Origin: Alphaproteobacteria bacterium
GTDB lineage: Bacteria > Pseudomonadota > Alphaproteobacteria > MPNO01 > UBA830
Length of the DNA: 64,000 nt
Reading direction: 5' to 3'
Assembly: GCA_965243135.1 (NCBI GenBank)
Contig: OZ251539.1
Coordinates: forward strand, 3,552,001 to 3,616,000
Position 1 is the stretch's first letter, and each line of letters starts with the position of its first letter. Positions 9,750-55,436 of the stretch are shown here, one piece after another. Both the position numbers and the translations under genes were made by a program. The notes under the pieces were generated by a model that saw nothing but the letters and a program-made list of their open reading frames with translations, ran no database searches and was not told the DNA's origin.

Positions 9750-9899
9750 AGGAGGGTTTTTCTCGGCGGCGGGGGCGTTTGCTGCAGCACCTTGACTCAC
9801 CGGGCAGCACGTCCTGAAACGGCATTCGCGGCAGAGATTGCCGACCGACCGCGTTGCGCTTCGGAATTGACGCGTTGCGCTTCGGAATTGATAGGGGGG
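9750..9899 (+). mobile_element. IS30-family right-end remnant with tandem-duplicated IR
   Basis: CCTTGACTCACCGG...GATTGCCGACCG...GCGTTGCGCTTCGGAATTGATAGGGGG. The 21-bp unit is duplicated at 9850-9870/9871-9891. Homologous to the right end of the IS30 remnant at 55341-55436. Confidence 0.75.
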
Positions 9900-10153: not shown

Positions 10154-10483
10154 GTGGTGGATTGGAGCGTCGGAACCCTGAACGCGACGGTGGACAGGGA
10201 GCTTGGAGCGCTGTCCGTCGACATGCGGGCGCGGTTTGCGAGAATCTGCCAATTGATTACTGCGGTCGGGTTGGAGCGCGTGGGGGCGCCTCACGTCAGG
10301 CACCTGACCGGACCACTTTGGGAAATGCGTATGAGCGGTCGGGACGGGATATCGCGGGCGCTCTACGTTACGGCCGGGGAGAGGCGGGTCGTGGTAGTGC
10401 GGGTGTTCCTCAAGAAGACCCCGAAGACACCCCGCCGGGAGATTGATTTGGCGCTGCGACGCGCCAAGGAGGTAACAGGATGA
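10154..10483 (+). CDS. type II TA toxin, RelE/ParE (Gp49/HigB-like)
   Basis: PHVRHLTGPLWEMR...RALYV...FLKKTPKTPRREI. Confidence 0.92.
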   Translation: MVDWSVGTLNATVDRELGALSVDMRARFARICQLITAVGLERVGAPHVRHLTGPLWEMRMSGRDGISRALYVTAGERRVVVVRVFLKKTPKTPRREIDLALRRAKEVTG

Positions 10484-10758
10484 GCAAAGTGACCGATCTA
10501 CATGAGGAATGGAGCCGTGATCCGGATTATCGTGAGGCTTATGACCGGCTTGGCCCGGAGTTCGAACTCTCTCGCTCTCTCATCGAGGCCCGCACACGCG
10601 CCAAGCTCACGCAAGCCGAGCTCGCGGAACGGATGAAGACGACGCAATCGGTCGTGGCCCGGCTTGAGAGCGGCCGCACCTATCCTTCGGCCAGAACCCT
10701 CGAAAAGATCGCGCGCGCCACCGGTACCCGTCTTCGGATCAGTTTCGATCCAGCATGA
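10480..10758 (+). CDS. XRE-family HTH antitoxin
   Basis: LTQAELAERMKTTQSVVARLESG; ATGA overlap with the toxin. Confidence 0.92.
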   Translation: MSKVTDLHEEWSRDPDYREAYDRLGPEFELSRSLIEARTRAKLTQAELAERMKTTQSVVARLESGRTYPSARTLEKIARATGTRLRISFDPA

Positions 10759-10840: not shown

Positions 10841-11014
10841 ATGAAGACGCAGACCTTTGATCTCGTACTGACACGCTATGTAATCGAACGGCTGCCGCCA
10901 CACGCTTATCGATTCGTTCTCAAGGGCACCATGCTGCTGATGGCTTGGTTCGACGGGCCGTTCCGTAGTTCGCGTGATCTTGATCTCTTGGGCCATGGCG
11001 ACCCGGCGCCTTGA
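10841..11014 (+). pseudogene. AbiEii/AbiGii nucleotidyltransferase toxin N-terminal fragment
   Basis: TRYVIERL...RFVLKGTMLL..W....RSSRDLDLLG motif, truncated at an IS30 end. Confidence 0.75.
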
Positions 11015-11083
11015 CTCACCGGCCGACTCCATCCCCATACTTTCCTCGCGACAGGGATTGCCGACCGCCGGTACTGCACTTCG
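11009..11083 (+). mobile_element. IS30-family right end, split by the IS1111 insertion (continues at 12357-12370)
   Basis: Joining the flanks gives ...GATTGCCGACCGCCGGTACTGCACTTCG|GAGTCGATAGGGGG, matching the other IS30 ends. Confidence 0.8.
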
Positions 11084-11098
11084 TGTATGGACGCCCCC

Positions 11099-11332
11099 GT
11101 TGATGCAAGCATTTTGGAAAGCTCGGTGCATGCGGTCAAGTACATTCGTGTGTCTGGATGCGACTTCAGTGGCCGCGGACGGCGATACGCGGACCGGGTC
11201 CAAGTGCGTGCTCGAAGCACACAAGAAGTGCAGCTGGTTTGCCCGCTCTATGACCATTTGCCCTTACTCTCCCTCCGTCCTTGCCCCCGACGTTATCCTA
11301 CAGCGCTAGCGCTGTCGGATCCCGGGAAACCC
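11099..11332 (-). ncRNA. candidate bridge/seek RNA of the IS1111-type element
   Basis: 3' non-coding region. The minus strand has CUGCACUUC (11233-11225), identical to target 11074-11082, next to hairpin UGUGUGCU-UCG-AGCACGCA. Confidence 0.6.
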
Positions 11333-12273
11333 TCAGTCGGCAGCCGGCGCGATTGCCGGCACCTGGTAGAACTCCTTCTTCGTCAGCAGCGCCCAAGCGG
11401 TACGCGCCATCTTGTTGGCCAGAGCCACCGCCACCAGCTTCGGAGGCTTGGTCGCAAGCATCTTGGCCAGCCACGAGCCCTTCGGAGCATCGCGTCGTTT
11501 CGCCAACCGAACGACCGACATTGCGCCGATGCTCTCCGGATGTCACGCTGACCCGTGGCCGAGCCTCACTTTGCCGCCCGTGCTGTCCTCTCTCGGCGTC
11601 AGACCCAGCCAAGCCGCGAAGTCGCGCCCCGACCGGAAGTTCTCCCGGCGCGAAGGCTGCCGAAGCGGTCAAGGGACCGACCCCGGGAATGCTCCGCTTC
11701 GAGTCCTCCTTCGCAAGCGCCGCGATCCTTTTGTCGATCTCGTCGATCTTCTTTTTCAGACTGCCGCTCCAACAGATCGGCTGCGGTGTACCAGGTCGGG
11801 CAGGCGATGCCAGCAACGCATCTTCGAGCTTCCTGACGTTGGCAGTGCCTTGGGGAACCACGAGACCGAACTCCGCAAGATGACCGCGAAGTGCGTTAAT
11901 CGTCTGGGTCCGCTGCCGCACGAACAGGCTGCGCGCATGCCACATCATTCCCTGCTGTTCCTCGGTCTTCACAGCGACGAATCGCATCGTCGGTGCGGCT
12001 TCGGCGATCGCCTCCGCCCGTGTCGTTCTTCTGACGCTTGACGAACGGCTTGACGGGTGGCAACAACCTGACCTCGCGGCCAAGCTTCTCCCGGCCCCAG
12101 TAGTGCGAACTGCCGCAAGCCTCCACGATGCACTTCGGCTGTCGCTTCAGGAAGTCCAGAACCTTCGGGCGGCCGAGGGTCCGGCGAAACGCAACGGATC
12201 CGTCCGTTCGAGCACCGTGAAGCGAGAAACTCCGCTTCGCCAAGTCGATGCCGATTATGCTAACCTGTTCCAT
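11333..12273 (-). pseudogene. IS110/IS1111 transposase (DEDD), frameshifted
   Basis: IIGIDLAK, VEACGSSHYWGR, KRQKND, RTQTINALRGHLAEFG, IPGVGPLTA, VALANKMARTAWA, spread over several frames. Confidence 0.92.
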
Positions 12274-12370
12274 GGATGTCCTCTCTCCATATGTTGTGGT
12301 TCGACAGCACTATGGCACAATGCGATGCCGCCGGGGAGGGGGCGTCCATCCCATCGGAGTCGATAGGGGG

Positions 12371-52469: not shown

Positions 52470-52665
52470 TTTGGCACCATGCATCGCTTGGTCACGATGC
52501 TGGATGAGGAGCATCCACCGACATCGAGCTGCAGGTTCCGAGCACCCGATGCCTGGCCTCGGAAAGCTACGCTCGGTGCATCCCAGAAAGGAGATCAGCC
52601 GTATGACCGACTTCGCGTTGGGGCAATCCACCCGCAAGGTTGGCGAGATCTTGTTGGCCTGCCGC
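52470..52665 (+). pseudogene. IS256-family transposase fragment
   Basis: DIELQVP.TR...SYAR...FALGQSTRKVGEILL. Confidence 0.55.
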
Positions 52666-52671
52666 CTTCGC

Positions 52672-52758
52672 ACCTTGACTCACCGGCCAACCCGTCCTGA
52701 TATTGCCCCCGTGATGGAGATTGCCGACCGCCCGCACCGCGCGTCAAAGTTGATAGGG
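52672..52758 (+). mobile_element. IS30-family right-end remnant
   Basis: CCTTGACTCACCGG...GATTGCCGACCG...GCGTCAAAGTTGATAGGG. Confidence 0.7.
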
Positions 52759-52911
52759 ATTGGAAAATTGACGGACAAAAAATACCGAGTGATACGTCAA
52801 TTTATAAAACTTCTTGGAAAAGATTCAGATTTTGAGAAATCGATTTCTTGTTCTACCGATATTTCAGCAAGAGTAAGGAAGCAATTCAAGATGATCGACG
52901 AACTGATATAA
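52759..52911 (+). pseudogene. C-terminal remnant of a DUF262-like protein (Menshen NsnA-like)
   Basis: FIKLLGKDSDFEKSISCST....RVRKQFKMIDELI*, directly upstream of the DUF3696 ATPase. Confidence 0.55.
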
Positions 52912-54308: not shown

Positions 54309-55436
54309 CCGCTTCAAGTTTGAAGTGCAACATGCGTGATGGCCGACCGACCGTTTGCAGCAAGATGTTGCGGAGAGGTCAGGCGATGCGGATAGTAAGT
54401 CCAAAACGGAGATTGGACCAACAGCTATCATCGCCTGACCCGCAACGAACGTTGGCAGATGATTAAGGAAAGCGGCGAGGCCGCGAACTGATCCGCAACG
54501 CAAGCCAGCGCGACCAGGCCGGCCGGGCGCCACAGCGCGGCTTCGGCGCAGCCTCGGAACCCCGGAGCGTTGGGGGAAGTCGACGAGAGGCTGGCTCCGC
54601 GGTGGAGTCCGGACTCGGGATCCCGTGTGCACGGACATGATAATCGATGGAAACATTTGGAGAACCCGATCGAAATACGATAGGGTCCTGCCAGCGGCCA
54701 CGAGTTCACTGGTTGCCTTCAGGGCCAAACCATGGTGCTGCGGGACCATGCTGAAAAAACAGTATTCCCGGCCCGATCACCCTCAGGCGTGAGAGGAAAC
54801 GGAAACGCCCTCCTTCCAGGCGTGGCATCCTCGATTATTTTGCACCTGAAACTGCCGATTATCGTGACTGCTCACAGGTCGAGCGGTCGGCCACGAGTGG
54901 CAAGCGCGTGTGGAACGGGCTGGCGGAACACTGCGTCTGCGGCGGTGCGGCAAGAAGCGGAACTCGCGCGCCAAAGGGCAGGCGGGCCGCGGCCGGGTGG
55001 ACATACGCCCGAAGATCGTCGAGGAGAAGTCGCGGGTCGGGGACTGGAGGGGGACACGGGTTCGCGCCACCGGGGTGCCGTACCGTCGCTGGTGGACCGC
55101 CCTTCCATGTTCACGTTTCTGGCCCTGCTCGGCGGCAGGACGGCCAAGGAAGCGGGCCACGCATGTGTCCCGTACAAGGGGTTCGTGCGCACGACTACAA
55201 CGGCAAGGAGTTTGCAGCCCACAGGGCGGTTGCCAAGGCTCTGGAAGCGTTGTTCTTCTTCGCGCAGCCGCGCGGGAGCGCGGCCTGAACGAGCACGGGC
55301 TGGTCCGCCAGCACAAGGCGACCGACTTTCGCACCCCTCCGCCTTGACATCTTGACTTACGCCGGCCCGGCCCGATAATGCCCTCACGAGAGGGATTGTC
55401 GACCGTCGGCGTCGCGCTTCGGAGTTGATAGGCGGC
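54309..55436 (+). mobile_element. IS30-family element, decayed
   Basis: Left IR CCGCTTCAAGTTTGAAGTGCAAC, right IR GTCGCGCTTCGGAGTTGATAGGCGG; fragments SYHRLTRNERWQ, RVGDWEGDT, D.GKEFA.H, GLNEH-GLVRQ..KATDF. Confidence 0.85.

Follow-up and report, generated by a model that had tools for sequence, protein, structure and literature searches.

Insertion sequences (IS) of the IS1111 family can have another mobile element as their target: Partridge and Hall reportedly described in 2003 that IS4321 and IS5075 target the 38-bp terminal inverted repeats (IRs) of Tn21-family transposons. IS1111 elements are defined by subterminal repeats of 11-13 bp, by terminal extensions that measure 7 bp at the left end and 3 bp at the right, and by a long non-coding region downstream of the transposase gene (PMC11187229). 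The same paper mentions a target logo for IS4321, reports that dependence on a seekRNA has been experimentally demonstrated for IS1111 members other than the one described here, and places the complement of the target top strand in the 5' part of that RNA (PMC11187229). In the bridge-RNA model, target and donor are handled by separate loops (PMC11208160). Targets of IS1111-type elements named in the literature consulted are repetitive extragenic palindromic (REP) elements, attC sites, Tn21-family IRs and short linear sites. The locus described here lies in a 64,000-bp stretch of an Alphaproteobacteria bacterium (assembly GCA_965243135.1, contig OZ251539.1, positions 3,552,001 to 3,616,000), which as a whole is referred to as the window, and it consists of a defective IS1111-group element at 11084-12356 that splits the terminal IR of an IS30-family insertion sequence. 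The element and the IS30 ends were scanned across the whole genome under study (6.1 Mb, one contig; G000 in the coordinates below). The results suggest, with a probability that we put at roughly 85%, that this element lineage inserted at one bond and in one orientation into the IS30 terminal IR, and that its targeting was directed by RNA from its downstream region.

The insert is 1273 bp long and belongs to the IS1111 group of the IS110 family, with its transposase gene on the minus strand. As the initial annotation had proposed, excising 11084-12356 restores an IS30 terminal IR, since ...GGTACTGCACTTCG, whose last base is 11083, rejoins GAGTCGATAGGGGG (12357-12370) at the junction CTTCG|GAG. 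Its description of the ends is equally accurate: the subterminal IRs, ATGGACGCCCCC (11087-11098) and GGGGGCGTCCAT (12338-12349), are complementary at 12 of 12 positions and lie 3 and 7 bp from the ends (TGT and CCCATCG in plus-strand reading), and CG is common to both junctions with no target duplication. In transposase orientation, the element opens with the 7-bp left extension CGATGGG (12350-12356, minus strand), whose first two bases are the CG core that recurs at the start of the right flank, followed by the left subterminal repeat (12338-12349, minus strand; ATGGACGCCCCC on the element sense strand), and it closes at 11084-11098 (minus strand) with the right subterminal repeat (11087-11098) and the 3-bp right extension ACA (11084-11086). 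Non-coding DNA flanks the transposase gene on both sides, 83 bp upstream and 249 bp downstream, and the downstream region (11084-11332, minus strand) is a candidate seek/bridge RNA gene on the evidence of its alignment and consensus fold with ten relatives. The element thus shows all three IS1111 characteristics that PMC11187229 lists. An Rfam search of the element gave no family match (four hits, all with E > 8).

The transposase is a pseudogene (11333-12273, minus strand). An open reading frame (ORF) begins at 12273 with MEQVSIIGIDLAK and runs on in two other frames to about 11333, and the three pieces, in three frames, match the NF033542 profile with E-values of 4.6e-12, 1.6e-16 and 3.6e-17, each scoring under the cut-off of 140 bits. 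Compared with an intact plasmid-borne IS110-family transposase, which carries the PF01548 and PF02371 domains, the pieces are 52%, 48% and 59% identical over amino acids 1-95, 94-233 and 236-340. An in-frame stop lies at about 11543-11545, in addition to at least two frameshifts and several small deletions. The decayed DEDD transposase of the initial annotation is therefore borne out, and on these features the insertion sequence at 11084-12356 is an IS1111-group copy that is dead.

The interrupted sequence is defined by comparison with a better-preserved IS30 element elsewhere in the genome. The sole IS30-family transposase gene of G000 over the NF033563 cut-off (277.6 bits against 80) lies at 329839-330687 in an open frame of 377 amino acids, within an IS30 copy at G000:C1:329613-331075 (1463 bp in the numbering used here) that begins with CCCCTTCAAGTGTGAAGTGCAATA and has an uninterrupted right end, TATTGCACTTCGGAGTTGATAGCGG. 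The presence of the same IR, unbroken, on this copy with an intact transposase supports the earlier assignment of the flanking motif to an IS30 IR. The left and right IRs of IS30 have a common core, GAAGTGCAATA, identical at 11 of 11 positions, plus further outer matches when the left end, (G)CCCCTTCAAGT.TGAAGYGCAA, is compared with the reverse complement of the right end, (G)CCCCTATCAACTCCGAAGYGCAA. Moreover, the IR tips are true termini, because homology to flanking DNA ends there in 20 left ends and 75 right ends. The insertion bond is 14 bp inward from the tip of the right IR. The hit site on the IS30 strand reads ...TGCACTTCG|GAGTTGATAG, and in element orientation it reads ...TATCAACTC|CG AAGTGCA..., with CG as the core and CGAAGTGCAA as the right side of the site; the corresponding target halves of the IR are ATCAACTC on the left and GAAGTGCA on the right. 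The motif at the flanks does not arise by chance: in the window, GCGCTTCGGARTTGATAGG has five matches at up to 3 mismatches against 0.07 expected, and TTGACTCACCGG has three against 0.29 expected.

The IS30 unit hit in the window is not a complete copy, as it comprises only 91 + 14 bp of a right end. Its inner part (10993-11083, plus strand), ending in ...GGTACTGCACTTCG at the insertion point, aligns by blastn with positions 1367-1450 of 1463 of the intact IS30 at 81.5% identity, and its outer 14 bp (GAGTCGATAGGGGG, 12357-12370, plus strand) are cut off from the rest by the insert; upstream are a Gp49/HTH_3 gene pair and unrelated DNA. Genome-wide, the right-end set contains about 75 units, 50 with a recognisable site and 25 without. 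The majority of these ends are solo, 80 to about 300 bp long, and they are read as truncated IS30 remnants rather than miniature inverted-repeat transposable elements since their inner (5') break points vary over that range. The two window sites cited in the initial annotation as intact IS30 right ends have to be reinterpreted: the first is an uninterrupted solo right-end unit of the TGCGCTTC variant (9787-9899, plus strand), and the second, near 55409, terminates an IS30-family copy that is decayed but has kept its two ends (54312-55434, plus strand; left IR from about 54312, right IR to about 55434). Another solo right-end unit in the window, uninterrupted and diverged, lies at 52658-52759 (plus strand). 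About 75 right-end units in G000 against about 20 left ends and one intact transposase amount to a strong, unexplained excess of solo right ends. In the unit at 9787-9899, a 21-bp tandem duplication (9850-9870 and 9871-9891) spans the bond that the IS1111-type element uses elsewhere, and it may be a footprint.

The window insertion is one of several. A blastn search of the insert against G000 gave 14 hits, which together with motif scans yielded nine loci, and the copies are 79-90% identical to the window copy. Three are full-length with both junctions in the IR (the window copy, 1273 bp; c2, 1176 bp; c3, 1109 bp), two have the right-end junction only (c5, and l1 in the left IR), and three have the left-end junction only (r1, r2 and the diverged c6). 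A genome-wide tabulation of flanks, the check that the initial annotation had called for, finds IR halves at eight of the nine loci, c4 being the exception: in these eight, the element occupies the homologous IR bond in one and the same orientation, its right end toward the IS30 interior. In the case of l1, the left flank (TTCAAGT.) and the core (TG) differ while the right flank, AAGTGCAAC, is unchanged, and its left IR is still joined to 177 bp of IS30 body that match positions 11-227 of the intact copy.

One may argue that these loci go back to one ancestral insertion, after which the composite of IS30 end and insert was copied by duplication or by IS30-mediated movement. All copies are indeed old, with 79-90% identity to the window copy, and the four occupied right-end units come from the same TGCACTTC subfamily. 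However, the IS30 flanks differ in length and have internal insertions and deletions, and the DNA beyond them is unrelated. In addition, l1 is inserted in a left IR and differs in its left flank and core, c6, from a diverged sister lineage, is found at the same bond, and a segment of the element complements the site, as described below. We therefore give a single ancestral insertion very little credence.

IS110-family fragments of other lineages lie close to IS30 ends in G000. A diverged IS110/IS1111-type fragment at G000:C1:2870340-2870620 (L041), with the N-terminus MEDISMVGLDLGKR and the left end CGGTAGGATGGACCCC..., abuts the IS30 IR tip GAGTTGATAGGGG; it is a second lineage at the same IS30 IR bond and has no tblastn match with the plasmid transposase. 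A frameshifted IS110-family pseudogene is found at G000:C1:331916-332941 (minus strand), about 850 bp past the right end of the intact IS30, and the lack of any blastn match with the window element places it in a different lineage.

Insight into how the site may be recognised comes from relatives on plasmids. A distant blastn search against plasmids returned 443 records at 60-90% identity, mostly from Alphaproteobacteria. From 14 fetched loci, ends were detected automatically in 11, and one of these (L027) was dropped as a false detection; the ends of L030, L031 and L035 were not found, so the set used consists of ten relatives with definable ends, seven of which have an annotated IS110 family transposase gene. 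The left end NG-ATGGG followed by the repeat is common to all ten and the window element, and the right end of the relatives is the repeat followed by ACA, except in L028 (ACG, with a right flank that looks disturbed). Their dinucleotide core is TG, AG or CG and recurs at the start of the right flank in eight of ten (all except L028 and L032), and among 11 family elements the core is identical at both junctions in nine. The non-coding region of the window element aligns with those of the ten relatives, and their common fold has two internal-loop modules, with 29 pairs in the consensus, eight of which show compensatory changes. A hairpin within the first internal loop (11206-11222, minus strand) is conserved in both the alignment and the consensus fold.

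The loops of this fold track the flanks of their own elements. In the relatives, the 5' strand of the first loop is the reverse complement of the element's own right flank, and seven of 12 elements match their own target over 7 nt or more, whereas in the cross matrix of guides against targets (12 elements, 130 off-diagonal cells) a right-guide match of 7 nt occurs in 4 of 130 cells and one of 8 nt in none. At the homologous position in the window element, the putative right-target guide CUGCACUUC (11225-11233, minus strand) matches its own target over 9 nt: it is the complement of GAAGTGCAG in the IS30 IR beside the cut, and exactly complements the TGCACTTC part of the IR. In six of 12 elements, the 3' strand of the first loop repeats the left flank plus core, with more noise (at least 7 nt in 8 of 130 off-diagonal cells). 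Elements that have the motif GAYACA in the second module carry the dinucleotide of their core after it in 11 of 11 cases (c2 is left out of this count as it does not have the motif), and in nine of 11 this dinucleotide equals the core at both junctions. The putative donor guide of the window element, GACACA+CG+AAT (11144-11154, minus strand), has the same sense as its right end plus core, and its dinucleotide is the core CG. This layout agrees with the seekRNA description (PMC11187229) and the loop model (PMC11208160). Two further candidate guides were rejected: CUGAAGU in the hairpin of the second module, as a sense-strand target match, is at chance level (one of 12 elements reaches 7 nt), and ATCAAC beside the right repeat, as a left-target guide, is probably a chance match as its equivalent in the relatives does not track left flanks.

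Occupancy of the IS30 right ends is in line with the guide: four of 12 units with TGCACTTC are occupied, compared with none of 38 units with other variants, including 22 with TGCGCTTC. A Fisher test by hand arithmetic gives p of about 0.002, a value that overstates independence because the units are related, and the contrast is thus suggestive and has no clean statistic. Another explanation is that the transposase protein or the structure of the DNA chooses the site, and that the complementarity of the non-coding region is coincidental; the presence of only one of the two expected target guides in this lineage would fit this, as would the fact that no RNA was observed. Nevertheless, the 9-nt match falls at the very loop position where six other members match their own, different right flanks, the core covaries with the second module in 11 of 11 elements, and other IS1111 members have the demonstrated seekRNA dependence cited above, so that a coincidence of this kind is highly improbable. 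Targeting of the IS30 IR motif, as the initial annotation suggested, is thus supported by eight of nine loci at the same IR bond and by a guide that complements TGCACTTC. Its further proposal of an RNA-guided element is likewise supported, within limits: the complementarity (9 nt) and the tracking of the core (11 of 11) are found in the sequence, guidance of targeting by RNA is what we infer from homology and complementarity, and the left-target guide is missing.

Several observations weigh against insertion of this lineage at one IS30 IR bond under the direction of its own RNA. First, the left-target guide is absent in the G000 copies, where the own-target match is only 4 and 3 nt, and a 7-column alignment gap at the left-guide position is common to all five G000 copies that keep the region. 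Second, the flanks of c4, one of the nine copies, could not be related to an IS30 IR. Third, the occupied units are all members of the younger TGCACTTC subfamily, and the contrast in occupancy therefore does not come from independent events; each of the four occupied right-end sites is a solo IS30 end (80-139 bp, without a transposase), so that an effect on a live IS30 is plausible at most. Fourth, a Pfam search of the raw broken ORF pieces found no transposase domain, and homology is based on NCBIfam and tblastn; among IS110-family matches in G000, none reaches the NF033542 cut-off (the best has 64.1 bits against 140), and every copy is defective. Fifth, the same pair of element and target was not found outside G000 in related genomes or in pattern scans of contigs and metagenomes. 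Finally, no RNA, circle or transposition was observed.

Regarding the distribution in particular, the lineage is rare outside G000: seven of 41 related genomes, G000 included, have any match to it, and apart from G000 the set has neither an intact copy nor the same junction, but merely short remnants, in G001, G029 and G036, whose flanks are different. The pattern scan of genome contigs returned four stretches, one real (the G029 equivalent) and three by chance, and two junction patterns scanned in metagenomes returned zero and three stretches, the latter all chance matches to AT-rich DNA. Two related right-end remnants in a genome of the same genus (L004 and L013, G001:C137) have the same non-IS30 flank (...GATCTGTCCG|TCTATGGACGCC), and therefore a sister lineage had another repeated target.

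On the reading that we prefer, RNA-directed insertion into the IS30 IR, a plausible course of events can be outlined. A circular form would join the right and left ends across the CG core, the route described for IS1111/IS110 elements. In the right end, TTGCAT stands 17 bp before the hexamer CA|CGAT that such a circle junction would create, and the two could act as a junction promoter such as has been reported for this family; the relatives have TTGCAA or TTGCGC before CA|AGAT or CA|TGAT at the equivalent would-be junction. Transcription would then give the transposase mRNA together with a downstream RNA from the 249-bp region. The donor module of this RNA (ACACA-CG-A, matching the element's own right end plus core) would hold the joined ends, while the 5' strand of the first loop, CUGCACUUC, may pair with the top strand of the IR, GAAGTGCAG, just to the right of the cut. 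Strand exchange at CG would insert the element, the absence of a target duplication being the step visible in the window. The result, an IS30 IR split 14 bp from its tip, is likewise visible, and that IS30 end should be disabled.

What this insertion habit means for IS30 is a separate question. The initial annotation pictured a multicopy site whose disruption immobilises the host IS; the site is indeed multicopy (about 75 units) and immobilisation is plausible, but the occupied right ends are all solo. With only solo ends among the occupied right-end sites, the IR is better supported in the role of an abundant landing site that does no harm. It is somewhat more probable that, in biological terms, the element targets the numerous solo right-end units of about 100 bp, as a harmless landing pad in many copies, than that it acts as an “anti-IS30” device: about 75 right-end units contrast with one intact IS30 transposase, and four of four occupied right-end sites are solo units (80-139 bp). 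Against this, the left IR that holds l1 has kept 177 bp of adjoining IS30 body, the solo units may have lost their IS30 body after insertion, and the same bond is present on the intact IS30 copy.

A more specific idea is that the lineage spread after loss of its left guide, finding the site through the right half-site alone (core + AAGTGCA), as a “half-guide” element specialised on the IR of another IS. Because this right half-site is common to the left and right IRs, one guide can hit both IS30 ends. We regard such a spread as improbable, although the missing left-target guide, the one feature that sets the element apart from its relatives, and the insertion of l1 in a left IR leave room for targeting by a half-site. 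If the lineage was functional without a left-target guide, this would be relevant to the extent of complementarity that such recombinases require in natural settings.

Other features of the genome are mentioned here for completeness. Directly upstream of the hit IS30 unit, at window positions 10154-10758, a Gp49-like (HigB-type) gene overlaps an HTH_3 gene, and the two are likely a toxin-antitoxin pair. Units similar to IS30 ends also occur in two repeat arrays. At G000:C1:1279500-1290500 (L039), there are five tandem units of about 2.2-2.3 kb each, every one of them preceded by an IS30-right-end-like unit oriented toward the gene, and two scanned ORFs each encode about 543 amino acids with AAA-ATPase_like and PDDEXK_9 domains. 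At G000:C1:21000-28000 (L040), three IS30-left-end-like units are spaced about 2.25 kb apart beside long ORFs without a Pfam match.

In summary, the IS30-family terminal IR would join the natural targets of IS1111-type RNA-guided elements. The locus also documents, in fossil form, the parasitism of one mobile element on the termini of another, including a guide-matched subset of occupied sites, and the alphaproteobacterial relatives provide a family-wide table of covariation between guide and target and between guide and core. For annotation, the insertion accounts for a split IS30 end and a frameshifted transposase. The initial annotation knew of no description of this target class, and a limited literature search likewise found no IS30-family IR among the targets, although the supplementary target logos of PMC11187229 (>300 IS) may include one.

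Compared with known systems, the plasmid relatives (e.g. WP_043753531 from Methylobacterium nodulans pMNOD01, L026) are similar in their ends, their two-loop fold and 48-59% amino acid identity. However, each of them has another target, with IS30-IR flanks in none of ten, and they carry the left-target guide that the G000 lineage lacks. IS621 and other IS110-group elements with bridge RNA likewise have a DEDD recombinase and a core of 2 nt, with one loop for the target and another for the donor (PMC11208160). The RNA of the IS110 group is found upstream of the gene, however, and its subterminal repeats measure only 2-3 bp. Like the window element, ISEc11, ISKpn4, ISPst6 and ISPa11, with demonstrated seekRNA, have a downstream non-coding region, 7/3-bp extensions and a 5' segment complementary to the target top strand (PMC11187229). 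In contrast, they insert into a short linear site, attC sites or REP elements, their “bottom strand” target match has no counterpart above chance in the window element, and the window element is known from its DNA alone. IS4321 and IS5075, of the IS1111 family, share with it the subterminal IRs and a fixed position and orientation within the terminal IR of another transposable element. Their host is a Tn3-family transposon, whereas here an insertion sequence of the IS30 family is the host. The target sequence bears no relation to theirs, and no copy here is alive. The closest precedent of the window element is thus IS4321/IS5075 in the IRs of Tn21-family transposons, the same behaviour with a new host element.

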